From positions 1 to 59,798 of the forward strand of contig JBBQHN010000001.1 in assembly GCA_038324015.1 (NCBI GenBank): a DNA stretch of 59,798 nucleotides. The letters are read 5' to 3'. The translations under genes were made by a program, and so were the position numbers. This stretch comes from Candidatus Limnocylindria bacterium (GTDB lineage Bacteria; Chloroflexota; Limnocylindria; P2-11E). The notes beneath the pieces are model-generated. The model made no database searches. It was not told the origin of the DNA and saw nothing but the letters and a program-made list of their open reading frames with translations. Of the stretch, positions 8,135 through 58,742 are shown one piece after another (within the stretch, counting starts at the first letter, position 1; each line of letters starts with the position of its first letter).

Positions 8135-8763
8135 CAGCTCGTACCGAACTGGCGGTCGCCCGCGTCGCCGAGACCGGGAACGATGTAGCCCTTCTCATTC
8201 AGGCGCTCGTCGAGCGCGGCGACGTGGATCGGCACGTCGGGGTGCGCTTCGTTGAGTGCCTTCACGCCCTCCGGTGCCGCGATGAGGCCGACGTACTTCA
8301 CACGCCGCGCTCCCCACTTCTTGAGGATGTCGATCGTCGCGACCGACGAGCCGCCCGTCGCGAGCATCGGATCGAGCACGAGGCAGACCTGCGCGGTCGC
8401 CGCCGACGGGAGCTTGTTGTAGTACTCGATGGGTCGCAAGGTGCGTTCGTCACGGAACAGACCGATGTGCCAGACCTGCGCCTCGGGGATCAGCTGGAGC
8501 GCGGCCTCGACCATCCCAATGCCGGCTCGCAAGACGGGAACCAACCCGATCTTTTCGGCAAGCCGCACGCCCGTATGGGGCGCGAGTGGAGTCCGGACAT
8601 CCGCCGGCGAGGTCTCGAGATCCTCGGTGGCTTCATAGAGGACGAGCATCGCGAGCTCATGGACCAGACGCCGGAATTCGGGCGGGGGCGTGCGCTCATC
8701 CCGAAGGCGTGTCACCTTCTCCCGCACGAGCGGGTGGGTCGAGACGTGGAGCTGGTCGGTCAG
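8134..8763 (-). CDS. upp: uracil phosphoribosyltransferase
   Basis: Upp motifs include [12 protein letters not shown] (PRPP loop) and [12 protein letters not shown]. The track ORF starts at GTG 8727, but the conserved N-terminal block LHVSTHPLV lies upstream in frame. The only plausible start is CTG 8763-8761, overlapping the glyA TGA (CTGA), which gives 209 aa. Confidence 0.8.
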
Positions 8764-10468: not shown

Positions 10469-11067
10469 GAATACGTCTCGACGCCGAGCAGTGCCTCTTC
10501 GAGCTGCGCCCGCGTGATCGAGCCCTCGCGCAGGATGGTGATCTGATCCGTCGTGCAGTCGACGATCGTGGAGGGGATGGTCCCTGCGGTCGTTCCCCCA
10601 TCGAGGACGATCGCGACGCGACCGTCGAGCTGCTCGATCACGCGCTGCGCGGTCGTTGAGTCCGGCTGGCCCGAGCGGTTCGCGCTCGTCACCGGGAGGC
10701 CACCGCCGCTCGCAGCGATCAACCGGCGCGCGACGTCGTTCGCCGGGACGCGGAACGCGATCTTCCCACGGCGCGGCGCGACGAGCACGATCGTGAGCGG
10801 GCCCGGCCAGAACCGCGCGGCGAGCGCCCGTGCGGCGGGCGTGACCATCGCGCTCGCCTCGAGGTTGGTCGCGTCGGAGAGAAGGATCGGGATGCGCTTG
10901 TCCTTCGGCCGGTCCTTGGCCACATAGAGCTTGCGGAGATGGTCATGACCGGCGGCGAGGCCATACACGGTGTCCGTGGGGAATGCGACGAGCTCCCCGT
11001 TCTCGAGCGCGGTCGCGGCCTCTTCCACCGCCCCTGGCGCATCGGCCGGTAGGAGGCGGGTCTTCAT
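10465..11067 (-). CDS. tsaC: L-threonylcarbamoyladenylate synthase (TsaC/YwlC/Sua5 family)
   Basis: ...GELVAFPTDTVYGLAA...ILLSD...TSANRSG... motifs, in the conserved position after prmC. Confidence 0.85.
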   Translation of the reverse strand: MKTRLLPADAPGAVEEAATALENGELVAFPTDTVYGLAAGHDHLRKLYVAKDRPKDKRIPILLSDATNLEASAMVTPAARALAARFWPGPLTIVLVAPRRGKIAFRVPANDVARRLIAASGGGLPVTSANRSGQPDSTTAQRVIEQLDGRVAIVLDGGTTAGTIPSTIVDCTTDQITILREGSITRAQLEEALLGVETYS

Positions 11068-11404
11068 CCGTCGATGATAGGCGGGGCCAGGCGGACACCG
11101 TCACGGGCGGCTCGAACGGCTTCCAGAGCCTCGACGTCACGCTGAGATCCGCGGAGCGGCGGTTGCACGCGATCGGGGTGTCATGGAGCACCGCGAGGCG
11201 GAGCAGGGCCCGGGCGTCCGCTTCGTGCGCGTGCGAGACGAGCGGGTCCCAGAAGAAGACGACGAGATCGAGCTCCCGCTTCGCGAGCGACGCGGTGTCC
11301 CGTGTGCCACAGAGATCGGCGTCGCGGAGAAGCGCCTTGTTCCACGCCGCCCACTCGACCAGGTCCTGCTTCCGCCCGTCATGCGCGATCAGTGCAATGC
11401 GCAG
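10943..11404 (-). pseudogene. degenerate methylglyoxal synthase-like gene (in-frame loss of the catalytic loop)
   Basis: (L)RIALIAHDGRKQDLVEW...LCGT...LDLVVFFWDPLVSHAHEADARALLRLAVLHDTPIACN aligns with MgsA (MKIALIAHD ... FxxDPL ... ALxRL ... IPxAxN). About 27 residues including the GPxGGDxQ loop are missing. There is no ATG/GTG/TTG after the prmC stop (only CTG 11404). The frame runs 125 nt into tsaC before a stop. Confidence 0.5.
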
Positions 11405-11427
11405 TCGTGCGACCGCGACGAGTCCCG

Positions 11428-12261
11428 CTACCGTCGCAGCCGGACGACCCGCTCCAGCCCGGCGAGATCGCGCAGCACGTCCACCATACCGAGCGGTTCG
11501 AGGAGCGCCCGCATCGCGCCGACCTGAGGCGGATCGCACTCGAAGAACGCCGCACCGTCGGGCGACAGCACCCGCGCCAGATCCGCGATCGCGCGGCGCA
11601 CGAGTGCGAGGCCGTCGGGACCGGCCACCGTCGCGAGTCGGGGCTCGTGGGCAAGCGACGCGCGATCGCCGGTCAGGTCCTCGAGATCGTCGTCCCGCAG
11701 GTAGGGAAGGTTGGCCGCGACGACATCGACCGTCTCGGCGATCGGCGCGAGCAGGTCGCCGATGCGAAGCTCGACCAAAGCGCCGTTCGCGGTCGCATTC
11801 GTCTGCGCAACGGCGAGCGCGTCGCGCGATACATCGGTCGCGATGAGCCGCAGCTGCGGCTCGCGCACCGCGAGCGCGATCGCGATCGCGCCGCACCCGG
11901 TGCCGACGTCCACGACGGTCAGCGCGCGGCCGGCGACGTGCTCGCGGACGGCATCGACCAGGATCTCGGTCTCCGGTCGCGGCACCAGCACGCGCTCGTC
12001 GACGGCGAAGCGCAAGCCGTAGAACTCTTTGAAGCCGCGTAGATAGGCGACCGGGATGCCGGCCGAACGCCGCTCCACGAGCGCTTCGATCCGCTCCGAC
12101 TCCATGGCGGTGAGCTCGACCTCCGGATGCGCGACGAGCGTCTCCTTCGACACCTTGAGCACGTCCGCAAGCAGCACATCCGCATCGAGGGCGGGCGCGG
12201 AAGCGCCCGCGGAGCGCAGGCGCTCCGTCGCGCGCGATCGGGCCTCGCCGCGGCTTGTCAT
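11428..12261 (-). CDS. prmC: peptide chain release factor N5-glutamine methyltransferase
   Basis: VLVPRPETE...VVDVGTGCGAIAIALA...DVVAANLPYL (SAM motif I plus an NPPY-type motif). Confidence 0.9.
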   Translation of the reverse strand: MTSRGEARSRATERLRSAGASAPALDADVLLADVLKVSKETLVAHPEVELTAMESERIEALVERRSAGIPVAYLRGFKEFYGLRFAVDERVLVPRPETEILVDAVREHVAGRALTVVDVGTGCGAIAIALAVREPQLRLIATDVSRDALAVAQTNATANGALVELRIGDLLAPIAETVDVVAANLPYLRDDDLEDLTGDRASLAHEPRLATVAGPDGLALVRRAIADLARVLSPDGAAFFECDPPQVGAMRALLEPLGMVDVLRDLAGLERVVRLRR

Positions 12262-14730: not shown

Positions 14731-16079
14731 GCGAAAAGCTCACGAACGACGCCATCGTCGATCGGGCGATCGCGTCGATCAAGGGCCTGCGCGTCGATGG
14801 TGGCGAGGTCTTCCTGCGGGACGGCCAGTCCACGTCGGTCGAGGTCCGCGACGGCGCCGTCGAGAACGCCATCACGCGAGGCGAGCGTGGCATCGGCGTC
14901 CGCGTCCTCCGCGGCGGACACGTCGGGTTCGCCTACACGAGCGACCTCTCCGCGGCCGGCATCGAAGAGTGCGTGACGTCGGCCCGGGACATCGCATCGG
15001 TCACCGAACCCGATCCTGACGTCTCTATCGCGACGAAGAAGATCGATAGCCCCGACCTCGAGCTCTACGAAGCAGGCATCGACGACCGATCCGTCGCGCA
15101 ACGGACCGTCGTCGCGCTCGCGGTCGAGCTCGCGGCGAAGGGCGTGGACAAGCGGATCAGCGGATTCCGGAAGACGACGTACAGCGACGGGTCGCTCACC
15201 ACGACCGTCGCGACGACAGCCGACGTGCGCGGCTCGTACCGCGAGACGTATTTCAGCGTCGGTACGTCGGCCGTCGCGACCGACGGCGACGAGCGCCAGA
15301 TCGGCTATCACGGCGAGGCGAAGCGGCAGTTCAGGCTCGTGGATCCGGACGCTGTCGGCCGCGTCGCCGCTCTGCGCGCGGTCGGAAAGCTCGGCGCGAA
15401 GCCGTTCAAGACCCAGAAGCTCCCGATCGTGCTCGATCCGTTCATGGGCATGTCGCTCCTGGGCGCGATCATCCCGCTCTTCTCCGCGGACGCGGTGATC
15501 AAGGGCAAGAGCCTGTTCGCCGGGAAGACCGGTACGGTCATCGCGAGCGATCAGGTGACGATCGTCGACGACGCGCGAACGCCTGGCGCGCTGCGTACCG
15601 CGCCGTTCGACGGCGAGGGTGTCACGACGACGACGCAGACGCTCGTCGACGGTGGTGTGCTGCGCGGCTACCTCTCGTCGCTCAAGACCTCGAAGAAGAT
15701 GGGGCAAGCGCCGACGGGCAACGCACGGCGCGGCTCGTATGCCGCTCCGAGCCGCATCGGCGCGGCGAACTTCCACCTGGCGGCCGGCGCGATGGGACCG
15801 GACGAGCTGGTGCACGGCCTCGACCGGTCGCTGCGGATCACCTCGCTGCTGAACCTCCACACCATCGACCCGATCTCGGGCGAGTTCTCGCTCGGCGCGA
15901 CGGGCGATTATCTCGAGCGGGGCGAGCGGCTCTATCCGGTCCAGGGCATCACGATCGCCGGGAACCTCACGACCCTCCTGTCATCGATCACCGGTGTCGC
16001 GAACGACCTGGTGTTCGGCTCATCGGGTATCGGCAGCCCGACGTTCGTCATCTCCGAGCTGTCCATCGGTGGGGCGTAG
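14727..16079 (+). CDS. pmbA: PmbA/TldE family metalloprotease partner
   Basis: MSEKLTNDAIVDRAI... with a PmbA_TldD fold throughout. ATGA overlap with the tldD stop. The upstream 74 aa of track ORF 14505.. are shadow. Confidence 0.85.
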   Translation: MSEKLTNDAIVDRAIASIKGLRVDGGEVFLRDGQSTSVEVRDGAVENAITRGERGIGVRVLRGGHVGFAYTSDLSAAGIEECVTSARDIASVTEPDPDVSIATKKIDSPDLELYEAGIDDRSVAQRTVVALAVELAAKGVDKRISGFRKTTYSDGSLTTTVATTADVRGSYRETYFSVGTSAVATDGDERQIGYHGEAKRQFRLVDPDAVGRVAALRAVGKLGAKPFKTQKLPIVLDPFMGMSLLGAIIPLFSADAVIKGKSLFAGKTGTVIASDQVTIVDDARTPGALRTAPFDGEGVTTTTQTLVDGGVLRGYLSSLKTSKKMGQAPTGNARRGSYAAPSRIGAANFHLAAGAMGPDELVHGLDRSLRITSLLNLHTIDPISGEFSLGATGDYLERGERLYPVQGITIAGNLTTLLSSITGVANDLVFGSSGIGSPTFVISELSIGGA

Positions 16080-16088
16080 GCCGGTGCC

Positions 16089-17054
16089 CTGACCAAGCTA
16101 CTGCGCGACATCGGACCGCTCCGCTTCGGCGAAGGCCACGAGTGCAGCTTTCCCGCGGCGCTCTCCGTCGCGACGAAGACGGAGTACGACTGGCTGATGG
16201 GCTGCTCGGGCGCCGCCTTCGATGTCACGATCGACCTCGCGGGCTTCGATCCGCTCGCGGCGACGCCGCGCGATCCCGGGACGCTCGCGATGGCGGCGCA
16301 TGCCGCAGGCGTGCGGCTCGACGATGTCCCGCCGCCATACGACGACGACATGCGCGAGCTTGTTGGCTCCAGGATCCGCGAGGCCATCGACGGCAAGCTG
16401 CCGCCGCTCATCCGCGGCGCGGTGGGACCACCCGAGTTCGGCCTCATCGTCGGCTATACCGATCCGGACCGGTTCCTCGTGCGGACATTCTTCGACAGGA
16501 GCGACAAGCCGAGCGAGATCGGCTGGCCGGACTTCGTCGACGCCGAACACGGCGGGCCGATCTTTCTGGATCTCGAACAGCTGGGGCAACGGGACCGTTC
16601 GGGCAGCGCTGAGCGGTCGACGGTGGCGAAGGCCGGGCTCGACGCCGGCCTCGGACGCGCAGCCGCGTCGGACGCCGCGCTGACCGGTTGGGCCGCAGCC
16701 ATCCGCGATGACGCACGCTGGGCGGATGCGAAGCACGCGGGGGCCGCAGCGTTCGCGGACCATGCGATGCGAATCGTGCTCACCGACAAGCGACGCGCCG
16801 CGGGCCGCTTCCTCCGTGGCCTCCGATCGCTCTTCTCGACGCCCGGCGGCGACCTGCTGCGCGCGGCCGAGTCGTATGGCTATGTGGTCGATGCCCTCGA
16901 CAAGCTCGGTACGAAGCCATTTGACCCGTCGGTCGCGATGCGCTTCATCGACCCGGGCCACCGGCGCGGCATCGCGAAGGCGCTCGACGCGGTGCTCGGT
17001 CACGAACGAGAGGCCCACGACGCGCTCCGTGCCGCCCGTGCGACCATCAGATAA
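16089..17054 (+). CDS. hypothetical protein; N-terminus weakly resembles papain-like BtrH_N/DUF4872 proteins
   Basis: The track ORF starts at ATG 16197. The 117 nt between the pmbA TAG (16077-16079) and that ATG are in frame, stop-free, GC3-rich and encode LTKLLRDIGPLRFGEGHECSFPAALSVATKTEYDWL. No ATG/GTG/TTG is available; CTG at 16089 or 16101 is the candidate start. TAATG overlap with uppP downstream. Confidence 0.5.
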   Translation: MTKLLRDIGPLRFGEGHECSFPAALSVATKTEYDWLMGCSGAAFDVTIDLAGFDPLAATPRDPGTLAMAAHAAGVRLDDVPPPYDDDMRELVGSRIREAIDGKLPPLIRGAVGPPEFGLIVGYTDPDRFLVRTFFDRSDKPSEIGWPDFVDAEHGGPIFLDLEQLGQRDRSGSAERSTVAKAGLDAGLGRAAASDAALTGWAAAIRDDARWADAKHAGAAAFADHAMRIVLTDKRRAAGRFLRGLRSLFSTPGGDLLRAAESYGYVVDALDKLGTKPFDPSVAMRFIDPGHRRGIAKALDAVLGHEREAHDALRAARATIR

Positions 17055-37178: not shown

Positions 37179-38657
37179 GTGGGAGCGAGGCTGTCCTCGG
37201 GCGCACTGGTCTGGGCAGGATTCGATGGTCCCGCGGTCCCCGGGGAGCTTCTCGACGCGATCGGGCGCGGCCAGATCGGTGGGCTCGTGCTCTTCGCCTA
37301 CCGCGGCAACGTCAGCTCACGCCAGCAGGTCCGCGCGATGCTCCGTGACTGCGCGGATGCGGCGCGGCGCGGCGGGCGTCCGCCGGTCCCGGTCGGCGTG
37401 GACCAGGAGGGCGGCAGCGTCGTCCGGATCGGCTACGGCGCGGTGTTCCCGAGCGCGATGGCCATCGGCGCGACCGGAGATCCGGCCAACGCCGAGCGCG
37501 CCGCGCGCGCGGTCGCGCATGGATTGCGCGCGGACGGCATCGGGGTGAATCACGCGCCGGTCTGCGACATCAACGTCGAGCCGCGCAATCCGGTCATCGG
37601 GACACGATCCTTCGGCGACGACCCGCAGCAGGTCGCGCTCTTCGTGGCCGCGTGGGTCCGCGGGTCGGAAGGTGCCGGCGTCGCGACTTCGGCGAAGCAC
37701 TTCCCTGGACACGGTGCCACGTCGTATGACACCCACCACACGACCGTGGACGTGGGCGCCGATCGCCGCGCACTGGACGCGCGCGAGCTTGTCCCGTTCC
37801 GTGCGGCAATTGGAGCCGGCGCGGCGAGCGTCATGTCAGCGCACATCCGCTACCCGGCTCTCGACCTGGACAGCATCGCGACGCTCTCGCCGCGGATCGT
37901 CCGCGACCTCCTGCGCGGCGAGCTCGGATTCAGCGGGCTCGCCATCACCGATGCGCTCGACATGTCCGGGCTCACGCAGGTCGAGACACCCGAGCGCGTC
38001 CTTGCGCGCGCGGTGAATGCCGGCATCGATGCGGTCATGCTGACGACGGGCCTGGAGCGACAGCTCGATGCGCAGGAGCAGCTCGCCCTCGGCGTCCCGC
38101 CGGCGCGCCTCTCCGAAGCGATCGGCCGCGCGGCCGCGTTCCGGGATCGCTACGGCGTCGCGGTCCCGGAGGATGAGTTCGACGACGGGCCGGGTCGCGC
38201 GCTGGCGCTCCAGATCGCGCGCGCCTCGATCACCGCCGCCGGACCGGCGCTGCCGCCACTGGGCGGACCGCTGCGGGTCGTGACCTTCGCGGCCCAACGG
38301 CTCTCGCCGGTGGAGGAGCTCGCGGACCCGGAGGCCCGCCTCGAACGCCTGCTCCGCGAGCGGCTCGGCCCGCGTGTCGCGTTCTCGGCCGACGGCTCCG
38401 CGCCGCAGGGCGACGGGCCGCTCGTCGTGTGCACCTCCAGCGCCTCCTTCGATGCGGCCCAGGCCGACCGCGCGCGATCCCTCCTGCGCGAGGGCGGCGT
38501 CCTATGTGCGCTGCGCAGCCCATACGACGCGATGCTCGTGCCCTCCGTGCCGGCGCTCCTCACGTACGGCGACGTCCCGGTATCGCTCGAGGCGCTCGCC
38601 GATGTCCTCTGTGGGCGCGCCGAGGCCCGGGGCAGGCTACCGGTCCGCCTCGCGTGA
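37179..38657 (+). CDS. glycoside hydrolase family 3 (NagZ-like beta-N-acetylhexosaminidase), cytoplasmic
   Basis: ...VDQEGGSVVR...KHFPGHGATSYDTHH...MSAHIRYPALD... GH3 catalytic-domain motifs with no signal peptide. Confidence 0.8.
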   Translation: MGARLSSGALVWAGFDGPAVPGELLDAIGRGQIGGLVLFAYRGNVSSRQQVRAMLRDCADAARRGGRPPVPVGVDQEGGSVVRIGYGAVFPSAMAIGATGDPANAERAARAVAHGLRADGIGVNHAPVCDINVEPRNPVIGTRSFGDDPQQVALFVAAWVRGSEGAGVATSAKHFPGHGATSYDTHHTTVDVGADRRALDARELVPFRAAIGAGAASVMSAHIRYPALDLDSIATLSPRIVRDLLRGELGFSGLAITDALDMSGLTQVETPERVLARAVNAGIDAVMLTTGLERQLDAQEQLALGVPPARLSEAIGRAAAFRDRYGVAVPEDEFDDGPGRALALQIARASITAAGPALPPLGGPLRVVTFAAQRLSPVEELADPEARLERLLRERLGPRVAFSADGSAPQGDGPLVVCTSSASFDAAQADRARSLLREGGVLCALRSPYDAMLVPSVPALLTYGDVPVSLEALADVLCGRAEARGRLPVRLA

Positions 38658-40348
38658 ACCGGCGCCGGCTTCTCCTGTCGGCAGCCGGGACCGCGCTTGC
38701 GGCGTGCGCACCGGACCGTACCGCGCCGCTCCGCACCCTCAACGCCTCGCGGGTCGACACCCTCGTCGCATCGATGTCGCCTGCCGCGCGGGCCGGCCAG
38801 ATGATGAGCGTCGCATTCCACGGAACCAAGATCACGCCTGCGCTCGAGGCGATGATCCGAGGCCGCGGTGTCGGCGGGGTCATTCTGTATTCGGAGAACT
38901 TCGACGGCGACGCCGCCAAGCTCAAGACGCTCGTCTCCGACCTCTCGCGTATCGCGGCCGCAGCGAAGTCCGTACCGCTCTTCTTCTCCATCGACCAGGA
39001 GGGCGGCGCAGTCGTGCGCATCAGCAGGGGCGCCACGATGCTGCCGGGCAACATGGCCCTCGCCGCTACGCCGGATCCGGCGGACAGTGTGCGGAAGGCC
39101 GCGGCGATCACAGCGCGGGATCTCCGCGCGCTCGGCGTGAACTTCGAGCTCGCACCTGACGCCGACGTGAACAACGAGCCGCGCAATCCGATCATCCTCA
39201 ACCGCTCGTTCGGGTCGGATCCACAACGCGTCGCCGCGCTCGTCGGCATCGCGACGCAGACGTTCACCGGCGCCAAGCTGCTCTCGTGCGTCAAGCACTT
39301 CCCCGGTCACGGTGCGACGACGACCGACTCGCACACCGGCTTGCCGCTTCTCGACGTGACGCGCGCGAGACTCGATGCCGTGGAGCTCGTTCCATTCAAA
39401 GCGGCGATCGCCGCGGGGACGCCCGCGATCATGAGCGCACACATCCGGATCGGGGCACTCGACCCGGCGCCGGACCTGCCGGTGACGCTGTCACGGCGCG
39501 TGATGACCGATCTCGTCCGTACCGAGCTCGGCTTCACCGGTCTGCTCGTGACCGACGACCTCGAGATGGGCGCGCTGACCCAGACGCGCAGCGAGGCCCA
39601 GGCTGGCTACGACGCGTTCGTCGCGGGCGCGGACTTCCTGCTGTTCCGCTTCGACGAGTCGGCGCAGACCGACGCGCACGATCGGCTGACCCGGGGCATA
39701 ACGGCCGACGCCGCGCTGCTCGCGCGGTCGGGCGAGTCGGTCGCGCGCATCGTCACGCTCAAGGAGCGGTTCGGCATCCTCGACACAGCCGGACCGTCGG
39801 GCACCGCGGGCAGCGACGCGGACCGCGCGACGGCCGACGAGCTCGCGCGCCTCTCGATCACGGTGCTCCGCGCCGGCGGCCTGCCCCTTCGCGGCCGCGT
39901 CTTCGTCGCGTCGCCGCAGAACCCCGACATCGCGCTGGTGACCGAGCAGCCGACGCTCGGTGCGGTGCTCGCGCAGCGCCTGCCGAACGTCACCACGCAG
40001 ACGATCACGCTCGCGCCGACGCAGGCGGACATCGACCGCGCCGTCGCGAGCGCGCGCGCCGCCGACGTCGTCGTGCTCGGGTCGGCGGACCTCTTCTCGT
40101 ACCCGCAGCAGGCCGCGCTCGCCAAGGCGCTCCAGGCCGTGAGACCGACAGTGCTCGTGTCGCTTCGCTCGCCGTACGACATCCTGAGCGCGCCGGGCGT
40201 CAGCGGCTACGTCTGCGCGTACACGGGCCGCGAGCCGACCCTTCGCGCGGTCGCTGATGTCCTCTCTGGAGCGCGGGCGCCGTCGGGCACGCTGCCGGTC
40301 GAGGTGCCGGGTGTCTACCGTATCGGCGACGGGATGAAGAACCTCTGA
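38654..40348 (+). CDS. glycoside hydrolase family 3, exported lipoprotein
   Basis: GTG 38654 (GTGA overlap). VNRRRLLLSAAGTALAAC is a twin-Arg-like signal plus lipobox. ...IDQEGGAVVR...KHFPGHGATTTDSHT...MSAHIRIGALD... Confidence 0.8.
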   Translation: MNRRRLLLSAAGTALAACAPDRTAPLRTLNASRVDTLVASMSPAARAGQMMSVAFHGTKITPALEAMIRGRGVGGVILYSENFDGDAAKLKTLVSDLSRIAAAAKSVPLFFSIDQEGGAVVRISRGATMLPGNMALAATPDPADSVRKAAAITARDLRALGVNFELAPDADVNNEPRNPIILNRSFGSDPQRVAALVGIATQTFTGAKLLSCVKHFPGHGATTTDSHTGLPLLDVTRARLDAVELVPFKAAIAAGTPAIMSAHIRIGALDPAPDLPVTLSRRVMTDLVRTELGFTGLLVTDDLEMGALTQTRSEAQAGYDAFVAGADFLLFRFDESAQTDAHDRLTRGITADAALLARSGESVARIVTLKERFGILDTAGPSGTAGSDADRATADELARLSITVLRAGGLPLRGRVFVASPQNPDIALVTEQPTLGAVLAQRLPNVTTQTITLAPTQADIDRAVASARAADVVVLGSADLFSYPQQAALAKALQAVRPTVLVSLRSPYDILSAPGVSGYVCAYTGREPTLRAVADVLSGARAPSGTLPVEVPGVYRIGDGMKNL

Positions 40349-41373
40349 GCCTCGACACGGTCAGGGCGGTCGTCGACGCGGCCGCGGGCACGCTCTTCAC
40401 CGCGTGCGTCGTACGCGTCGAGCGGAACGGCGCGGCGGATACGTACGCCGCCGGGACCCTCTGCCCGGATCAGACCGCTGGTCCCGACGCGCCGTGCACG
40501 CCGGCCGCGATCTTCGATCTCGCCTCGCTGACGAAGCTTTCGACGACGGCGCTGCTGCTATCGCTGGTTCGCGAGCGCGCGCTCAAGCTCGAAACACCGC
40601 TCCGCGAGCTCGTCCCCGATTTCCACGGCGGGCGCAAGGACGACGTCACGCTCTTCCACGTCCTGACCCACACCGCAGGTCTGAGCTGGTGGCTCCCCCT
40701 CTACGAAGAGGTCCGCTCGATCGAGGAGGCCGCGTGGCGCGCGGCACAGGAGCCGCTCGCCCAGGACCTCGGCACGTACACGTACAGCGACCTTGGCTTC
40801 ATCATGCTGACCGCCGGACTCGCCCTGGCCGGCGGCGCCTCGTTCGACGCGCTCGTGAAGGAGCGCGTGACCGGCCCGCTCGAGGCGGAAACGCTCACCT
40901 ACCTTCCGCGCGACCCGCTCGCCTGCGTCGCCACGGAGCTCGACGTGAAGCTCGGCCGCGGACGCATCCGCGGGAGCGTGCACGATGAGAATGCCCACGC
41001 GATGGGCGGGATCGCCGGCCACGCCGGTCTCTTCGGCACGGCGTCCGACGTCGCGGCGATCGCGCGCGTGTACCGCGACGGTGCGGGCATCGGGAACGAG
41101 CTCGCCGCGCTCGCGCGCGCGGAGCACGTGCGCGGCGACAACGTTCGGCGCGGACTCGGGCTGGCACTGCGCGCGCCGAACGGACCGATGACGAGCGACG
41201 TCTGGAGCCTCGATAGCTACGGTCACACCGGTTTCACGGGCACGTCGCTGTGGATCGATCCGACCAGGGACCTCACCGTCGCGCTCCTGACGAACCGGGT
41301 GTACTTCGGCCGCGCGAACGACGACGCGATGTACCGGTTCCGCATCGCGATCCACCAGGCGGCCGCTTCGTGA
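40345..41373 (+). CDS. beta-lactamase-fold serine hydrolase (class C / DD-peptidase-like)
   Basis: The frame is open from 40258. It encodes ...AAIFDLASLTKLSTTALLL (SxxK at 40525-40536), YSD (YxN-type), and ...GHTGFTGTSLWIDP (HxG/KTG-type). The track ORF begins only at ATG 40804, because no ATG/GTG/TTG occurs in frame before it. Candidate start is CTG 40345, overlapping the GH3 TGA (CTGA). Confidence 0.75.
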   Translation: MSLDTVRAVVDAAAGTLFTACVVRVERNGAADTYAAGTLCPDQTAGPDAPCTPAAIFDLASLTKLSTTALLLSLVRERALKLETPLRELVPDFHGGRKDDVTLFHVLTHTAGLSWWLPLYEEVRSIEEAAWRAAQEPLAQDLGTYTYSDLGFIMLTAGLALAGGASFDALVKERVTGPLEAETLTYLPRDPLACVATELDVKLGRGRIRGSVHDENAHAMGGIAGHAGLFGTASDVAAIARVYRDGAGIGNELAALARAEHVRGDNVRRGLGLALRAPNGPMTSDVWSLDSYGHTGFTGTSLWIDPTRDLTVALLTNRVYFGRANDDAMYRFRIAIHQAAAS

Positions 41374-42461
41374 TCGCGATCGGCATCATGTCCGGCACCT
41401 CCGCCGACGGCATGGACGCCGCGGCGATCGAGATCGGTGACCAGCGGCCCCGGCCGGCGATCCGGCTGCTCGCGCATGTCGCGCGCGATCATCCCGACGC
41501 GCTGCGCTACCGGATCATCGCCGCGGCCTCCGGCGCTCCGCTACCGGCGCATGACATCGCGACGCTCCACGCCGCGCTCGGCGAGGTATACGCCTCCATC
41601 GCGCGTGAGCTCATCGCCGTGATCGGGCGTGCGCCGGCTGCCATCGCGGTCCACGGCCAGACCATCGCGCACTTCCCTGCCGAGCATGCGACGCTGCAGA
41701 TCGGCGACGCCTCGCGCGTCGCCCTGGAGACAGGCGTGCCGGCGATCAATGATTTCCGCAGCGCCGACGTCGCGCTCGGCGGCCAGGGAGCGCCGCTCGT
41801 CCCGTTCGCCGACCACCTCCTCTTCGCCGACGGCACGCCGCGCGCGATCCTCAACATCGGCGGCATCGCGAATGTCACGCTGCTGCCGACGGCCGCAGCC
41901 TCGGACGTCGTCGCGTTCGACACGGGGCCCGGGAACATGGTCATCGACCAGCTCGCGCGCAAAGGCGGTAACGAGCTCGATCGCGACGGCGCGGCCGCGA
42001 GGCGCGGCACGCCGAACGCCGCGGTGCTCGCGAGCGCGCTGGGTCATCCGTACTTCGCGCGGACCGGTCCAAAGTCGACAGGGCGCGAGGAGTTCGGCGC
42101 GCCATTCGCGCAGCAGCTCCACGCCGACGTGAAGGCCGCGGGCGGATCGCTCGACGACGCGATCGCCACGGCGACCGCGCTCACGGTCGAATCCATCGCG
42201 CGCGCGCTCGACGGAGGGCCGTGGCGCGAACTCGTGATCGCCGGTGGCGGCGCACGCAATGTGACGCTCGTCGAGCGCCTCGCCGCCCGCACGAAGCTCC
42301 GCATCCGCTTGACCGACGAGCTCGGGATCCCGGCCGAGGCACGCGAGGCAGTCGCGTTCGCGATCCTCGGCGCCTACCGCCTCCGCGGCGAGCCGAACAC
42401 CCTGCCGCGGTGCACTGGTGCGTCGCGCGCGGTCTCCGCCGGAGCCGTCCACGCCCCCTAG
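41370..42461 (+). CDS. anmK: anhydro-N-acetylmuramic acid kinase
   Basis: VIAIGIMSGTSADGMDAAAIE...NIGGIANVT...DTGPGNMVID...GGGARN are AnmK signatures. GTGA overlap with the preceding stop. Confidence 0.9.
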   Translation: MIAIGIMSGTSADGMDAAAIEIGDQRPRPAIRLLAHVARDHPDALRYRIIAAASGAPLPAHDIATLHAALGEVYASIARELIAVIGRAPAAIAVHGQTIAHFPAEHATLQIGDASRVALETGVPAINDFRSADVALGGQGAPLVPFADHLLFADGTPRAILNIGGIANVTLLPTAAASDVVAFDTGPGNMVIDQLARKGGNELDRDGAAARRGTPNAAVLASALGHPYFARTGPKSTGREEFGAPFAQQLHADVKAAGGSLDDAIATATALTVESIARALDGGPWRELVIAGGGARNVTLVERLAARTKLRIRLTDELGIPAEAREAVAFAILGAYRLRGEPNTLPRCTGASRAVSAGAVHAP

Positions 42462-42479
42462 CCGTCCATACTTCGCGGC

Positions 42480-43388
42480 ATGAAGGATCTCGTCGTCGGC
42501 ATCGACGCAGGCGGCACGAAGACGCGCGCCTTCGCCGTGACGCGGACCGGCGAGATCGTCGGTCGCGGCGCGGGCGGCGGCGGCAACCTGTTGTCGAGCC
42601 CGGACCCGCAGGGTTCGATCGCCGCGGCGCTCCAGGAAGCGCTCGCGGGACGCGAGCCCGACGCGATCGTCCTGTCCTGCTCCGGTGGCGAACGAGAGGC
42701 GGACCGCGCGAAGGGCCGCTCGATCCTCGCCGGGCTCGTTGGGCCAGAGGTCGCGGTGGACGTCACCCACGACGCGCTCGCCGCGCTCTACGCAGGCAAC
42801 CCGGCCGGATGCGGCGTGGTGCTCATCTCCGGCACCGGGTCCATCGCCTACGGACGCAACGACCAGGGCCTGGAAGACCGCTGCGGTGGGTGGGGCTACC
42901 TCGTCGGTGACGAGGGCTCCGCGTTCTGGCTCGGTGCCGAGGGCCTTCGCGCCGCCTCGTACGACCACGACGGCCGGGGCTCGCCGACGCGCATCACCCG
43001 CCACCTGTTCCTGGATCTGGGCGCCGCGGACTTCAATGGCGTGCTGCCGCTGCTCTACGGAAAGCCGCACCCGCCACCTGCGATCCAGGCCGCCACGCGC
43101 GCGGTCGCCCGCGCCTACGCCGAGGACGACGCGATCGCGGTGAACATCGTCCAGCGCGGTGCGCGGCACCTCGCGGAGATGGCCGCCACCGTCGCCCACG
43201 CGCTGCTGCTCGAGAACGGGCCGGTGTACCTCGCCGGCGGCGCATTCGAGAACGTCCGTCCGCTCGAGAAGGCGGTGCGGCTCGAGCTCCTCGGCGTCCT
43301 CCCGCGCGCCGCGGTCGAGCCTGTCGGCGAGGAGCCGGCGATGGGTGCCGCGCGCCTCGCGATGAAGCTCGCCTGGGGAGACAAGTGA
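42480..43388 (+). CDS. BadF/BadG/BcrA/BcrD-type ATPase, N-acetylglucosamine/MurNAc kinase-like
   Basis: MKDLVVGIDAGGTKTRAF...ISGTGSIAYG...GGWGYLVGDEGSAFW... ASKHA-fold sugar kinase motifs. Confidence 0.75.
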   Translation: MKDLVVGIDAGGTKTRAFAVTRTGEIVGRGAGGGGNLLSSPDPQGSIAAALQEALAGREPDAIVLSCSGGEREADRAKGRSILAGLVGPEVAVDVTHDALAALYAGNPAGCGVVLISGTGSIAYGRNDQGLEDRCGGWGYLVGDEGSAFWLGAEGLRAASYDHDGRGSPTRITRHLFLDLGAADFNGVLPLLYGKPHPPPAIQAATRAVARAYAEDDAIAVNIVQRGARHLAEMAATVAHALLLENGPVYLAGGAFENVRPLEKAVRLELLGVLPRAAVEPVGEEPAMGAARLAMKLAWGDK

Positions 43389-44206
43389 CCGGCGTGCCGC
43401 GCACCGAGACGCGCAACCCGAAGGCCTCGACGCTCGCGACGATGTCGAGCCGCCAGATCCTTGAGCTCATGAACGACGAGGATGCGACGGTCGCGGCCGC
43501 GGTCCGGGCGGCGCTCCCCGCGATCGAGCGCGCGACCGACGCGATCGCCGCCGCATTCGCGCGTGGCGGCCGGCTGCGCTACGTCGGCGCCGGGACCAGC
43601 GGCCGGCTCGGCGTGCTCGACGCGAGCGAGGCCCCACCGACGTTCGGGGTCGAGCCCGAGCTCGTCCAAGGGATCATCGCGGGCGGCGACGGAGCGCTGC
43701 GCACCGCCGTCGAGGGCGCGGAGGACGATCCACTGTCCGGCGAGCGCGACACCGTCCGTGTGACCAGACCAGGTGACGTCGTCGTCGGCATCTCCGCCGG
43801 CGGATCGGCGCGCTACGTGGTCGCGGCGGTGCGCGCCGCGGCTGCCCTTGGCGCGACGACCGCGGGTATCACGTGCGTCGCCGGATCGCCGCTCGTGACC
43901 GTCGCCCTGATCCCGATCGTCGTCGATGTCGGTCCCGAGGTGCTCGCCGGATCGAGCCGGCTCAAGGCCGGCACCGCGACCAAGCTGGTGCTCAACATGC
44001 TGTCGACCGCGGCGATGATCCGGTCCGGCCGCACGAAGGGCGATCTGATGATCGACCTTCGGCCGACGAACGCGAAGCTCCGCGCACGCGCGGTCCGCAT
44101 GGTCCAGGACGAGCTCGGAGTCGACGAGCACGCCGCGACCGCGAAGCTCAAGGCGGCTCAGTGGAGCGTCAGGCGCGCGATCGAACGCCCGCGCTCGCGC
44201 GGATGA
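43385..44206 (+). CDS. murQ: N-acetylmuramic acid 6-phosphate etherase
   Basis: ...TETRNP.S..L...S...IL.LMN.ED...GGRLRYVGAGTSGRLGVLDASE.PPTFG... is the MurQ SIS-domain signature. GTGA overlap. Confidence 0.9.
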   Translation: MTGVPRTETRNPKASTLATMSSRQILELMNDEDATVAAAVRAALPAIERATDAIAAAFARGGRLRYVGAGTSGRLGVLDASEAPPTFGVEPELVQGIIAGGDGALRTAVEGAEDDPLSGERDTVRVTRPGDVVVGISAGGSARYVVAAVRAAAALGATTAGITCVAGSPLVTVALIPIVVDVGPEVLAGSSRLKAGTATKLVLNMLSTAAMIRSGRTKGDLMIDLRPTNAKLRARAVRMVQDELGVDEHAATAKLKAAQWSVRRAIERPRSRG

Positions 44207-44973
44207 AGCGGGCACTGCTCATCGTCAACGCCGATGACTTCGGTCGCGCACCGGGTATCAACGCCGGCATCCTGCGCGCCCACCGCGACGGCATCGTCAC
44301 CGCGACGACGCTCATGGTCGGCGCGCCCGCGGCCGAGGATGCTGCACGCATCGCGCGTGCGACCCCTTCGCTCGATGTCGGCGTCCACCTGACCCTGACC
44401 TACGCGCGACCGGTCACCGACCCGAAGCGCATCCCCTCCCTCGTTGAGCCCGATGGCTCGTTCCCACGACTGCCCGCCGCGTTCCTTGGGACGGGCCGCG
44501 CGAAGCGCGACGAGGCGCTCATCGAATACCGCGCCCAACACACCCGCGCAATCGAGTTGACCGGTCACGCGCCGACGCATCTCGACACGCATCACTGGCT
44601 CCACGACGAGCCTGACCTCGAGTGGGCGATCGCGGCGCTCGCGCGCGACACCGGCGCCGCTGTGCGGCCACACGACGATGCGCAGCGCGATCGGCTTCGC
44701 GCGGCGGGCGTGAAGACCGTCGACCAGTACCGCCGCGATTTCCAGCATGACGGGCACGTCGACGTCGCGACGCTCGAGCGCATCCTGGCCGACATCGGCG
44801 ACGGGGTGACCGAGCTCGGTTGTCACCCCGGCGAGCTGGACGCGGAGCTCGAGCGCACGTCCACATACGCGGCGTTGCGCGTGACGGAGCTCGCGACCCT
44901 CACCGATCCGACTGTCCGCGCGGCCGTCGAGCGGAACGGCATCCGGCTCGCGACGTATCGGGATCTCGCCTGA
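44203..44973 (+). CDS. YdjC/ChbG family carbohydrate deacetylase
   Basis: MKRALLIVNADDFGRAPGINAGILRAHRDGIVTATTLMV...GVHLTL...HLDTHHW... YdjC motifs. ATGA overlap. Confidence 0.8.
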   Translation: MKRALLIVNADDFGRAPGINAGILRAHRDGIVTATTLMVGAPAAEDAARIARATPSLDVGVHLTLTYARPVTDPKRIPSLVEPDGSFPRLPAAFLGTGRAKRDEALIEYRAQHTRAIELTGHAPTHLDTHHWLHDEPDLEWAIAALARDTGAAVRPHDDAQRDRLRAAGVKTVDQYRRDFQHDGHVDVATLERILADIGDGVTELGCHPGELDAELERTSTYAALRVTELATLTDPTVRAAVERNGIRLATYRDLA

Positions 44974-45911
44974 TGCTGACGAAGGCCCTCTGGGTGGTGC
45001 GCGACCGCATCACGACGCGCGAGGCGATCGAGGACCTGCTCGCGTACAGCGTCGGCTGGAACATCCGCGACCTCGTCGTGCAGGTGCGCGGCCGCGGCGA
45101 CTCCTATTACGCGAGCGAGCTCGAGCCACGCGCCGAGGGCCTCGCCGATCCAACGCTCGATCCGCTCGCGCACCTCGTGCGCGGCGGCGCGGTCGTGGGC
45201 GTGCGGATCCACGCCTGGGCGAACGGCACGTTCGTCTGGTCGAGTCCGGACAAGGCGCTGCCACGCTCTCGTCGCCACATCGTGAACGCGCATCCGGACT
45301 GGCTGCTCCGGCCGGACGGCGTGACGTACCTCGATCCCGCGGGCGGCTCGGACTGGGAGGGTATCTACATCGACCCAACGAACGCCGCGGCGCGGGACCA
45401 CACGACCCTGGTGTTCGAGGACATCGTGAAGCGCTATCCGGTCGAGGGCTTCCATCACGACTACATCCGCTACCCGCAGGTGACGTACGCGGCGTCGCCC
45501 GGCGATCACGCCGCGATCACAGAGCTCGTGCGCGAAACGACGCGTCGGGTGCGCGCCGCGCGGCCCGGCATCGTGATCTCAGCCGCGGTCTTCCCCGATC
45601 CGCTGGTGGCCCGGGACCGCGTGCTCCAGCGCTGGCCGGAATGGGCGGCGGAACGGCTGATCGACCTCGTCTGCCCGATGGCGTACCGGACCGATACCGC
45701 GGAGGTGCGCCGGCTCCTCGGCGCCGCACGCGCGGCCGCGCCGGCGACCCCGATGTGGGGTGGGTTGATGGCGTACGCCGGGAAACGCGAGCTGGTGCGC
45801 GAGCAGGTCCGCGTGGCGCGGGACGCCGGCTGTGCAGGGGTCATTCTGTTCGCCTACGACCCGGACAAGCGCGACGTGATCGACGCCTTTGCGGCGGAAG
45901 CGGATCGGTAA
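44973..45911 (+). CDS. glycoside-hydrolase-like family 10 (DUF187/YngK-like) protein, no signal peptide
   Basis: ...ALWVVRD...NIRDLVVQVRGRGDSYYAS...HAW.N...HPDW...YIDP...GFHHDYIRYP... as I recall for GHL10. TGATG overlap. Confidence 0.6.
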   Translation: MLTKALWVVRDRITTREAIEDLLAYSVGWNIRDLVVQVRGRGDSYYASELEPRAEGLADPTLDPLAHLVRGGAVVGVRIHAWANGTFVWSSPDKALPRSRRHIVNAHPDWLLRPDGVTYLDPAGGSDWEGIYIDPTNAAARDHTTLVFEDIVKRYPVEGFHHDYIRYPQVTYAASPGDHAAITELVRETTRRVRAARPGIVISAAVFPDPLVARDRVLQRWPEWAAERLIDLVCPMAYRTDTAEVRRLLGAARAAAPATPMWGGLMAYAGKRELVREQVRVARDAGCAGVILFAYDPDKRDVIDAFAAEADR

Positions 45912-56575: not shown

Positions 56576-57789
56576 GCGCGCTTCTGTACGACGCCGTCCT
56601 TCATGACGAATGCGATGGAGGCCGGGTCCTTGAACAGCCCGATGTTCGCGAGCGGATCGCCCCGCACGCCGATGATGTCGGCCCGCTTGCCCGTGACGAT
56701 GGTGCCGACGAGCGCGCCGACGCGTGCGCACTCCGCGGCGGTCTTCGTCGTCGCCACGATCGCCTGCATCGGGGTCATCCCGTTCTCGACCATGACCGCG
56801 ATCTCCTCGGCGTTCGTGCCGTGCGGCCCCACCCCGCTGTCGGTGCCCATCGCGATCTTGACCCCGGACTCGACGGCCATCCGGAACGACTGCCGGTGGG
56901 CCTCGATGACCTCCTTCGACTTGCGGACCGCGTACGGCGGCATCGCTGAAGGATCCTTCTCGGCGCGGCGCAGCACCCACATCGGCGCGATGAGCGTCGC
57001 GACGAGATACGTGCCACGCCTCTTCATCTCCGCGCAGGCCTCCTCATCGAGGTAAATGCCGTGCTCGATCGACTCGACACCGGCCAGGACGGCGTTCTTG
57101 ATCCCCTGGTTCGCCTGCGCATGGGACATGACGGTCTTGCCGGAGGCGTGAGCTTCGTAGACGACCGCCGCGATCTCCTCGGGCGAAAACCCGGTCGCGC
57201 CGGGCTCGTCGTTCGGCGAGAGCACTCCGCCGGAGGTCATGATCTTGATCTGGTCGGCGCCGGCGCGAAGGACCAGGCGGGCCGCACGCCGGACGCCGTC
57301 GATGCCATCGACCACGCCGTTCGGCCGCTCCGGATCGCCGGGCCAGATGACCACGCCGGACGGAGTCATCGAATCGCCGTGACCGCCGGTCTGCGACAGC
57401 GGCGTCACGGCGATGCGCATGCGAGGACCGGGGAACAGTCCGCGCTCCACCGCCAGCTTCACCCCGCGCGTCGTGAATCCGGCGTCGCGAACGGTGGTGA
57501 AACCCGCCTCGAGCGTCGTACGAGCGGCGGCCAGAGCCATCGCGGTGTTGAAGCTGAGCGGTGTGAGCAGCCGCTCCTGGATGTTCTGCTGCGGGACCGC
57601 AAGGTGGACGTGGCAGTCAATGAGCCCGGGCAAGATCGTCAGGTCACCCGTGTCGATGATCTCGGCGCCCTTCGGCGCGTCCGACGCGACCTTGGTGATC
57701 GCGCCGTCCTCGATGACGATGAACTGTCCACGCGTCGGATCCGCGCCGGTCCCGTCGATGAGCGTGGCCGCGCGAATGGCTGTCGTCAT
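56572..57789 (-). CDS. amidohydrolase-superfamily enzyme (COG1228-type, prolidase/imidazolonepropionase-like)
   Basis: ...LIDGTG...ILPGLIDCHVHL (HxH metal site), ...IKIM.SGG..., ...SHA..., ...IEHG..., ...GTDSG... Confidence 0.8.
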   Translation of the reverse strand: MTTAIRAATLIDGTGADPTRGQFIVIEDGAITKVASDAPKGAEIIDTGDLTILPGLIDCHVHLAVPQQNIQERLLTPLSFNTAMALAAARTTLEAGFTTVRDAGFTTRGVKLAVERGLFPGPRMRIAVTPLSQTGGHGDSMTPSGVVIWPGDPERPNGVVDGIDGVRRAARLVLRAGADQIKIMTSGGVLSPNDEPGATGFSPEEIAAVVYEAHASGKTVMSHAQANQGIKNAVLAGVESIEHGIYLDEEACAEMKRRGTYLVATLIAPMWVLRRAEKDPSAMPPYAVRKSKEVIEAHRQSFRMAVESGVKIAMGTDSGVGPHGTNAEEIAVMVENGMTPMQAIVATTKTAAECARVGALVGTIVTGKRADIIGVRGDPLANIGLFKDPASIAFVMKDGVVQKRA

Positions 57790-58742
57790 GCGATCGCCGC
57801 CTCCAGTTGCGGCCGCACCTCGGTCGCAATGCGCTCGATCGTCTCGTGATCGAACGGTGCCTTGACGTACAGGATGAAGCCGCGTGCTCCCGCCGCCCAG
57901 AGCGCGGCGCAGCGTTCCACGAGCGCGTCGACCGTGTGGATCGCATTCATCGCGAGCGGCGCTGTGGCGCGGGAGCGGCTGCGCACACGCTCGAGGTGCG
58001 CCTCGACGTCGGGCGTCCGCTCGCGAAGGATCACGTCCGGCCGGACCGTCGTGAGCGGCGTGATCTCCGCGACGTCGCGACCGATCTCGGCGCAGTGCGC
58101 CGCGAGCACGTCGAGCTTATGCCGGATGACCGCGGGGTCACCGTGGCCGTGCCAGTAGTCGGCATAGCGAGCGACCGTGCGTAGTGTCTTCTGCTCCCCG
58201 CCACCGCCGATGAGGATCGGCAGACGCCTCTGCACCGGCTTCGGCTCGGCGACCGCGTCCTTCAACCGGTAGTGCTTTCCCTCGAAGGACGAAGAGCTCT
58301 GGTCGAGCAGCAGCCGGAGCACGCGGGCCGCCTCGTCCATGCGCGCGAGGCGGCCACCTGTGCTCGGGAACGGAATGCCATACATCGCGTGCTCGGCCTC
58401 GTGCCACGCGGCGCCAAGGCCGAGGATCGCGCGGCCCGCTGACACGTGGTCCAACGTGACGGCCATCTTCGCCAGTACCGGTGGATGCCGGTACGTGTTC
58501 CCGGTGACGAGGGTCCCGAGGCGCACCGTCTTCGTGATAGCCGCCCACGCCGCCAGGAGCTCCCAGGCCTCGAACATCGGTCCTTTCGGATCTCCATCGA
58601 GCGGCACGAAGTGATCCCAGGTGAAGAGCGAGTCGAACCCGAGGCGATCCACGAGGAGCGCGGTGTCACGGAGCTCGGGCCAGGTGGTGTGCTGTGCCGG
58701 CAGGTTGATGCCCCAGTGGACCCGCGAAGCGCTGGCGGCTAT
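57786..58742 (-). CDS. LLM-class F420-dependent oxidoreductase
   Basis: ...VDRLGFDSLFTWDHF...LGTLVTGNTYRHP...GRAILGLGAAW... The track ORF starts at GTG 58652, but the conserved VHWGINLPAQHTTWPELRDTALL lies upstream in frame with no ATG/GTG/TTG back to the stop at 58788-58790. Candidate start is ATA 58742, overlapping the aminotransferase TAG (ATAG). Confidence 0.7.
   Translation of the reverse strand: MAASASRVHWGINLPAQHTTWPELRDTALLVDRLGFDSLFTWDHFVPLDGDPKGPMFEAWELLAAWAAITKTVRLGTLVTGNTYRHPPVLAKMAVTLDHVSAGRAILGLGAAWHEAEHAMYGIPFPSTGGRLARMDEAARVLRLLLDQSSSSFEGKHYRLKDAVAEPKPVQRRLPILIGGGGEQKTLRTVARYADYWHGHGDPAVIRHKLDVLAAHCAEIGRDVAEITPLTTVRPDVILRERTPDVEAHLERVRSRSRATAPLAMNAIHTVDALVERCAALWAAGARGFILYVKAPFDHETIERIATEVRPQLEAAIA

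Follow-up and report, generated by a model that had tools for sequence, protein, structure and literature searches.

In bacteria and archaea, the translation of neighboring genes is coupled at stop–start overlaps of 4 nucleotides (nt), ATGA or GTGA, and of 1 nt, TGATG or TAATG (Huber et al. 2019, PMC6728339; review PMC12548453). The terms CUG, CTG, AUA, and near-cognate do not occur in either of these two papers, and a 2026 preprint on short overlaps includes only the ATGA, GTGA, and TTGA types. A stretch of 59,798 nt from contig JBBQHN010000001.1 of Candidatus Limnocylindria bacterium (Chloroflexota; assembly GCA_038324015.1), hereafter the window, encodes a beta-lactamase-fold serine hydrolase whose gene adjoins that of a GH3 glycosidase through a CTGA overlap and very probably starts at a non-canonical codon at this junction, the CTG. 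As at the known overlaps, the two genes are co-directional members of an operon, the stop codon occupies positions 2–4 of the four shared bases, and the arrangement is conserved across species, with the 4-nt NTGA overlap present in all 26 genomes compared. Unlike at the known overlaps, the restart codon is CUG, or AUA at a second kind of junction, instead of the canonical AUG, GUG, or UUG, and it has been kept over long evolutionary distances.

Isolated near-cognate starts have also been described. The pcnB gene of Escherichia coli starts at AUU, and NCBI translation table 11 also includes ATT and ATC. The known cases are isolated genes, and autoregulation is frequent among them, as with the AUU start of infC (PMC3592434). 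The starts described here resemble these rare cases in that a near-cognate codon of weak intrinsic initiation is presumably read by the initiator tRNA; they differ in that there are about four such genes in one window, all tied to a stop codon and each conserved across many species. In caliciviruses, termination–reinitiation dependent on the termination upstream ribosomal binding site (TURBS) accepts near-cognate restart codons, and the initiator tRNA still decodes them (review PMC5972666). There, too, the restart takes place at a stop–start overlap, and the approximately 36 nt frozen upstream of the GH3–hydrolase overlap are as expected of an upstream tethering element. However, the calicivirus system is eukaryotic and viral and relies on pairing with 18S rRNA and on eIF3, and another of the junctions in the window, that of upp, lacks the upstream constraint. 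Overlap coupling and isolated near-cognate starts are known, whereas no published description was found of conserved near-cognate restart codons at overlaps: neither conserved CUGA or AUAG starts in bacteria nor the start codons of Limnocylindria turned up in the full-text literature searched, a scope that excludes most subscription journals.

The organism is uncultured, and its sequence is known only from metagenome-assembled genomes (MAGs); the closest proteins and loci likewise belong to MAGs of Candidatus Limnocylindria. The window has a G+C content of 69%, rising to approximately 87% at third codon positions. The hydrolase locus was compared between the window and the GTDB representatives of 25 species of this lineage, with the orthologous loci drawn from independent assemblies (NCBI and Logan). 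ATG, GTG, and TTG are referred to as canonical starts.

The hydrolase frame (frame 1) is open from 40258 to 41373, between an in-frame TGA at 40255–40257 and the terminal TGA at 41371–41373, and contains no frameshifts or internal stops. An earlier note on this DNA had claimed that no canonical start precedes the ATG at 40804, that the segment upstream of it is nevertheless the N-terminal half of a serine hydrolase with an SxxK motif at 40525–40536, and that the CTG at 40345–40347, overlapping the TGA of the GH3 gene about 60 codons before this motif, is the initiator. The coordinates are correct. There is not a single in-frame canonical codon in 40258–40803; such codons make up 4.7% of the sense codons in the genes of the window, and the chance that 152 consecutive codons all lack one is approximately 7e-4. 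The only in-frame CTG or ATH codons before the catalytic serine are CTG 40345 and ATC 40510, and the serine is encoded exactly 60 codons after the CTG. The C of the CTGA is the synonymous third base of the final leucine codon of the GH3 gene, CTC. The residues predicted at the N-terminus are Met/Leu-Ser-Leu-Asp-Thr-Val-Arg.

The Pfam family Beta-lactamase (PF00144) matches residues 45–333 of the hydrolase over profile positions 38–326 of 329, with 146.5 bits against a cut-off of 27, and all three active-site motifs of the family are present, SLTK at residue 61, YSD (a variant of YxN) at 147, and HTG at 294. Both SLTK and YSD are encoded upstream of ATG 40804, and only HTG downstream of it. Residues 49–181 align with residues 49–181 of mature AmpC, and the best sequence match in the PDB is to family VIII esterases or class C-like proteins (E of approximately 1e-10). 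As a side observation on codon usage, none of the 11 valine codons among the first 152 hydrolase codons (40348–40803) is GTG (9 GTC, 1 GTA, and 1 GTT), and 7 of 12 are GTG in the second half (40804–41370); relatives carry GTG at codon 21–22, so the scarcity may be due to chance.

The aligned start codon in the relatives is ATG, GTG, TTG, or CTG, always within the same 4-nt overlap. The first base of the NTGA is C in 12 genomes, G in 10, T in 3, and A in 1, so that the overlap itself provides a canonical start in 14 of the 26 genomes. This base is silent for the GH3 protein because it is the third base of the last leucine codon (CTN). Orthologues with A, G, or T are called from the junction codon itself and begin M/V/L-S-L-D/E. 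In a neighbor-joining tree, the window and ten other CTG genomes form one clade with a single nested GTG genome (L005); the CTG of L025, which adjoins the TTG genome L021, has a second, independent origin. The first canonical codon of the CTG genomes is codon 153–154 in the window, 74 in L006, 105 in L008, and 73 in L025; it is codon 21 or 22 in seven others and codon 8 in L014. Since the nucleophile is at residue 61, the window, L006, L008, and L025 cannot make a nucleophile-containing protein from a canonical start. The distance from the junction to the conserved GTLFTA motif ranges from 11 to 16 codons, with the junction codon always in frame, and at residues 2–22 the protein resembles that of the clades whose junction codon is GTG, TTG, or ATG. 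In many relatives, gene callers choose a GTG at codon 22, and approximately half of the closest database clusters of the hydrolase are cut by 22 residues.

The segment that lacks a canonical start evolves like the rest of the gene. In the CTG clade, which has a synonymous divergence of approximately 0.58, the ratio of nonsynonymous to synonymous substitution rates (dN/dS) is 0.195 for codons 23–153 and 0.216 from codon 154 to the end, and this equality of the two halves rules out a pseudogene and a 189-residue product. Among codons 23–153, the third position is variable in 104 of 131, the first in 34, and the second in 32. Judged from these substitution patterns, the hydrolase is intact, under purifying selection, and presumably expressed. 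Together with the aligned relatives, the selection on the start-less segment supports the proposal that translation starts at the CTG of the CTGA.

Approximately 65 nt at the GH3–hydrolase junction show almost no synonymous variation. In the CTG clade, pairs of genomes differ at synonymous sites by 0.04 in the final 10 GH3 codons and by 0.10 in the first 10 hydrolase codons, compared with 0.27–0.60 elsewhere, and synonymous sites are frozen in the approximately 36 nt that precede the CTGA. The control junction from the hydrolase to AnmK, in the same genomes, has no such dip (0.375 and 0.25). A nearly identical nucleotide string occurs in the sister GTG clade (L019, L020, and L027), and the invariant stretch in L004–L014, L028, L019, L020, and L027 includes a rare CGT arginine codon. 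The junction was examined for RNA structure and for recoding elements, and both were rejected, with a minimum free energy z-score of 0.05 and an alignment fold without covariation; Rfam has zero matches in the whole window, and neither a promoter nor a terminator was found inside the invariant stretch. The stretch may be a ribosome-retention element. At the upp CTGA junction, there is no upstream synonymous constraint; therefore, the constraint is locus-specific and was rejected as a general feature of CTGA starts.

Table 1 Location of the hydrolase junction, its motifs, and the other genes and junctions discussed
Feature	Position	Strand	Remarks
upp (uracil phosphoribosyltransferase)	8134–8763	−	CTG 8763–8761 in CTGA overlap with SHMT stop 8762–8760
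mgsA-like open reading frame (methylglyoxal synthase-like), decayed pseudogene	10946–11431	−	Deletion; start and stop lost
Gene after pmbA, no Pfam family	16080–17054	+	Opens right after PmbA TAG 16077–16079; first ATG is codon 40
Second GH3 gene, two-domain beta-N-acetylhexosaminidase-like (NagZ/YbbD-like)	38654–40348	+	Pfam Glyco_hydro_3 and Glyco_hydro_3_C; stop TGA 40346–40348
Stretch with almost no synonymous variation, ~65 nt	40310–40375	+	Last ~12 GH3 codons and first ~10 hydrolase codons
CTGA stop–start overlap	40345–40348	+	CTG 40345–40347, proposed initiator; TGA 40346–40348, GH3 stop
Beta-lactamase-fold serine hydrolase, coding sequence, 342 residues	40345–41373	+	PF00144, AmpC alignment, orthologue starts, dN/dS
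SxxK nucleophile motif SLTK, residue 61	40525–40536	+	Encoded by TCGCTGACGAAG; from sequence
Second catalytic motif YSD, residue 147	40783–40791	+	Equivalent of the class C Tyr150 motif; from sequence
ATG, first canonical in-frame start, codon 154	40804–40806	+	Start here gives a 189-residue fragment without SxxK and YSD
HTG motif, residue 294	41224–41232	+	From sequence
AnmK (anhydro-MurNAc kinase)	41370–42461	+	Pfam AnmK, 308 bits; GTG in GTGA overlap with hydrolase stop
F420-dependent LLM-class oxidoreductase	57786–58742	−	ATA 58742–58740 in ATAG overlap with aminotransferase stop TAG 58741–58739

The earlier note had named four more genes of the window as examples of the same situation, upp, the LLM gene at 58742, the gene after pmbA, and an mgsA-like gene, and three of them have been borne out. 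In upp, the first canonical codon is a GTG 12 codons downstream of the CTG, and 6 residues of the match to the Pfam UPRTase profile lie ahead of this GTG. In 28 related metagenome loci, the junction has the form CTGA in 13, ATAG in 3, GTGA in 3, TTGA in 2, and TAGTG in 4; a 4-nt overlap is thus present in approximately 21 of 28, with four more in the 1-nt TAGTG form. The first canonical codon of upp lies 51–56 codons downstream in L082, L086, L088, L094, and L098, in an enzyme of 209 residues. More distant upp genes, from other phyla, have an ATG with a Shine–Dalgarno (SD) sequence, with no overlap. The loci L082 and L086, with ATAG, differ from L083 and L085, with CTGA, in three adjacent bases in an otherwise near-identical context. 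Here the stop and the start have switched jointly, and the overlap has been preserved (CTGA to or from ATAG). In two upp loci (L080, 2420–2515; L081, 2320–2445), a spacer of 80–115 nt separates SHMT from upp, which has no canonical start. A mini open reading frame (ORF) in the spacer, TTG AGC AGG CTC TGA, ends in a CTGA that overlaps the upp CTG, and in L080 it can also be reached from an ATG 13 codons before its stop. In both loci, an ATT in frame, preceded by GGAG at a distance of 7 nt, is a possible alternative start of upp.

The F420-dependent LLM-class oxidoreductase has at its predicted start, as the note had it, a non-canonical codon, here an ATA within an ATAG. Its first canonical codon is a GTG 30 codons downstream, inside the conserved barrel, and position 11 of the Pfam Bac_luciferase profile aligns at ORF residue 33. 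The ATAG is in frame in all eight distinct loci read (10 were fetched), and the linker to the conserved HWGINLP is 7–14 codons long, always in frame, in these eight. The A before the TAG is kept while the last codon of the aminotransferase varies between GCA, GAA, and GGA, and ATA makes up 0.02% of sense codons. The extension upstream of the called start reads -AASASR.../HWGINLPAQHTTWPELR. About 100 of the 120 closest database clusters (P0121–P0240) are called at 263–290 residues instead of approximately 311–318, a cut of 25–55 residues, and the contig's own NCBI product (P0121) is called at 288 residues from an internal GTG. The shortened database calls of the hydrolase and LLM orthologues agree with the claim that standard gene callers truncate such genes.

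No canonical start precedes the conserved N-terminus of the gene after pmbA: its homologues align with the query from residue 3–7 onward, and a conserved PLRFGEGHxCxFP lies upstream of the first ATG. Its start is likely the CTG at 16089, 9 nt past the stop, as far as can be told from the sequence. The PmbA TAG and the next ORF are in one frame with nothing between them (16077–16092: TAG GCC GGT GCC CTG). A PmbA fusion made by stop-codon readthrough is formally conceivable, but in relatives the protein is encoded separately.

For every long coding-like ORF of the window, the distance from the preceding stop to the first canonical codon was examined, followed by the domain coverage. The non-canonical cases are all 0–9 nt from an upstream stop, and the screened genes that do not adjoin an upstream stop have a plausible canonical start. 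Among the 4-nt overlaps of the window, approximately 15 are canonical (9 GTGA and 6 ATGA) and 3 near-cognate, to which one near-cognate start 9 nt past a stop is added. Genes with near-cognate starts thus number approximately 4 of roughly 50–55 in the window, or roughly 7% of the genes in the sampled DNA. Three other junctions were not counted. The CTGA at 19989, which joins two long coding-like ORFs, the downstream one membrane-protein-like (LILIVGLAFAG...), has an in-frame ATG 6 codons upstream and is therefore counted as canonical, with an overlap of 22 nt; the CTGATG at 44970 and that at 8137 on the reverse strand are ordinary 1-nt ATG overlaps. In the related locus L157 (14465–14537, reverse strand), a CTGA links an LLM gene to a downstream PNPOx-like gene, whose conserved N-terminus, ARLGHLATASGDGRPHVVPV, precedes the called start. 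This junction is a further family with a predicted CTG start.

Because every real case is placed no more than 9 nt from an upstream stop, the mechanism that fits best is re-initiation by the ribosome that has just terminated. This reading is favored because the association with stops is strict, the −4 geometry is conserved, and stop and start change jointly (CTGA to or from ATAG). Judged from the geometry and co-variation, the hydrolase probably starts by termination-coupled re-initiation. The ribosome would finish the GH3 protein at the UGA and remain on the mRNA, slip back one base, and re-initiate on the CUG with the initiator tRNA; a near-cognate codon would be sufficient since the ribosome is already placed at the start site. 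The re-initiating ribosome would be the terminating one, and the CUG or AUA itself would presumably be decoded by the initiator tRNA. The same device would be at work in this lineage at upp (CTGA or ATAG) and the LLM gene (ATAG), and probably at the gene after pmbA. The weak codon may keep the output of the downstream enzyme low and fixed in relation to that of its upstream partner. A more far-reaching and tentative proposal, which is possible but hardly the expected outcome, is that post-termination ribosomes of Limnocylindria re-initiate with relaxed start selection, so that any near-cognate codon (CUG or AUA) in a −4 overlap works, in a manner similar to that of the caliciviruses. This property would be lineage-wide, perhaps through a change in IF3 or the initiator tRNA, and the frozen stretch of approximately 65 nt would be a ribosome-tethering element. 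An initiator tRNA was sought for its anticodon stem; neither the window nor any of 60 related loci contains a tRNA gene.

The alternative that survives best is that CTG and ATA are ordinary weak starts, used de novo by free 30S subunits that are guided by a purine-rich, SD-like stretch upstream and independent of termination of the preceding gene. It would fit the canonical ATGA and GTGA overlaps counted above, which make the overlap the default geometry of the window, and the moderate SD-like pairing upstream of all three near-cognate overlaps. The possible ATT start of upp in L080 and L081, where no long gene adjoins, points the same way, and translation table 11 permits both CTG and ATA as starts. 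However, starts drawn freely by 30S subunits should not all lie 0–9 nt from a stop and be missing at genes away from stops, nor should start and stop co-vary with preservation of the overlap. SD pairing at the near-cognate sites, calculated with a generic anti-SD tail, is −6 to −7.4 kcal/mol, within the range of ordinary starts, so the weak codon is not offset by a strong SD; such compensation was rejected since the duplex energies (−6.1 to −7.4 kcal/mol) are average. In reporter work in E. coli, moreover, de novo initiation at CUG and AUA reaches no more than a very low percentage of the AUG level. De novo initiation is therefore regarded as unlikely.

That the hydrolase starts at another codon close by, with the CTG irrelevant, is very improbable. 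The candidates are ACG 40357 and ATC 40510 in the window and the GTG at codon 21–22 in relatives. The weaker selection on codons 2–22 (dN/dS of 0.50), the preference of callers for the codon-22 GTG in many relatives, and the in-frame position of ATC 40510 would be accommodated by such a start, but codons 21–22 of the window are GTC GTA, with no GTG, and ACG 40357, codon 4 after the CTG, is CGG, GAC, or CAG in relatives. ATC 40510 is five codons before the serine, and a start there would delete approximately 55 residues that align with mature AmpC. The similarity of residues 2–22 to those of clades with a canonical junction start and the constant frame of the junction codon at 11–16 codons from GTLFTA also place the start at the junction.

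Still less credit can be given to a programmed ribosomal frameshift near the end of the GH3 gene, which would produce a GH3–hydrolase fusion without need of its own start. The hydrolase frame is indeed open for 29 codons upstream of the CTG, and the synonymous-site conservation of the last 12 GH3 codons is unusual. By contrast, a canonical start lies right at the overlap in 14 of the 26 genomes, and none of the 120 closest homologues is a GH3–hydrolase fusion, all being 289–364 residues long. There is no slippery heptamer, the final codons before the stop differing between the GH3–hydrolase (AAC CTC TGA), SHMT–upp (CGA GCC TGA), and aminotransferase–LLM (CTC GAA TAG) junctions with no slippery sequence in common, and the fold, covariation, and Rfam results given above speak against a stimulatory structure. 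Least probable of all, to the point of being negligible, is that the gene is a pseudogene or start-loss allele with a 189-residue product or that the CTG is really a GTG misread in sequencing or assembly, as the MAG origin of the contig and the real start-lost pseudogene in the same window (mgsA-like) might suggest, since the start-less half has the same dN/dS as the other half, the frame is undisrupted, the fragment would lack two of three catalytic motifs, and the CTG recurs in 11 other species-level genomes from independent NCBI and Logan assemblies.

Several observations weigh against termination-coupled starts at near-cognate codons or limit their extent. The first is that one of the four additional examples, the mgsA-like ORF, is a pseudogene with no near-cognate start. 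Compared with its orthologues, it has a 26-residue internal deletion that removes SGPRGGDAQ, the ATG of MNARLRIALIAHDG is lost, and the stop is lost as well, so that the frame runs approximately 120 nt into the Sua5/YrdC gene; the related contig protein P0271, 87% identical, shares the deletion. Relaxed selection, a disrupted frame, and the loss of conserved segments all mark this ORF and are all absent from the hydrolase, and a GTA or CTG start for the mgsA-like gene was rejected. A second is that not all such junctions are starts: the CTGA at the SET-domain gene of L157 is a frameshift in a broken gene. Third, upp of L080 and L081 carries its CTG without an adjoining long upstream gene, and in seven genomes of the CTG clade the GTG at codon 21–22 is a possible alternative start of the hydrolase. 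The selection signal in codons 2–22 of the hydrolase is weaker, with the dN/dS already quoted and dS lowered to 0.23, and initiation at the CTG, like the identity of the N-terminal residue, is deduced from sequence. Finally, CTG is never the start at other coupled junctions of the same loci: AnmK (0 of 22; 14 GTG and 8 ATG in relatives), the second GH3 gene (0 of 16; 11 GTG, 3 ATG, and 2 TTG), and YdjC (0 of 11; 7 ATG, 3 GTG, and one CTGATG form with ATG as the start). Therefore, the lineage does not treat CTG as equal to GTG everywhere; CTG is tolerated or preferred at particular genes, and the pattern is junction-specific. Of the suggestion in the earlier note that coupling at near-cognate codons is used systematically in this organism, the recurrence stands, at about 7% of genes, and the use at every junction does not, with AnmK, the second GH3 gene, and YdjC always canonical; the mechanism is one that we infer.

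The SET-domain gene of L157 (16313–16800) comes after an F420 ligase gene and is split by a 1-nt frameshift at approximately 16591. It has no canonical start near its conserved N-terminus and a GTA in a GTAG overlap, and is likely to be either a pseudogene or a product of misassembly.

The hydrolase belongs to a complete-looking cluster for the recycling of N-acetylmuramic acid (MurNAc) and anhydro-MurNAc from peptidoglycan, at 37179–45911 of the window, in the order MarR, GH3, GH3, hydrolase, AnmK, BadF-type sugar kinase, MurQ-like SIS protein, YdjC, and GHL10. The cluster, ending in GHL10, is syntenic in a 91%-identical MAG contig (JBBRQB010000002.1, L001). Overlaps of 4 nt or 1 nt between stop and start join most of its genes, and the second GH3 gene itself starts at GTG 38654 in a GTGA overlap with the first. 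The proposed peptidoglycan-recycling operon consists of GH3, GH3, hydrolase, AnmK, N-acetylglucosamine kinase, MurQ, and YdjC. The second GH3 protein scores 165 bits with the NCBIfam model for beta-N-acetylhexosaminidase, under its cut-off of 207 bits. We take the GH3–hydrolase pair to resemble the muropeptide rescue pair NagZ(YbbD)–AmiE(YbbE) of Bacillus subtilis and PBP4B/YfeW of E. coli. As in NagZ–AmiE, a beta-lactamase-fold hydrolase directly follows a GH3 N-acetylglucosaminidase, here clustered with AnmK, a sugar kinase, a MurQ-like SIS protein, and YdjC. Unlike PBP4B itself, the hydrolase reaches only 78.3 bits against the equivalog cut-off of 385 (NF002968), and the likeness is at the level of sequence and context; AmpH (NF007943; 48.9 against 266) and class C beta-lactamase (34.3 against 415) are also below their cut-offs.

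The conserved junctions provide evolutionarily replicated, natural evidence on the question of whether post-termination ribosomes are less stringent in their choice of restart codon than free 30S subunits. They also expose a systematic annotation error in a lineage that is abundant in soil and freshwater. A gene caller limited to ATG, GTG, and TTG would at best find a catalytically dead 189-residue fragment of the hydrolase in this contig, and such truncations spread into protein families, structure predictions, and metabolic reconstructions of MAGs. If relaxed re-initiation is true of Limnocylindria, several percent of all genes would be affected, and truncated or missed proteins would be present in public databases across the class.

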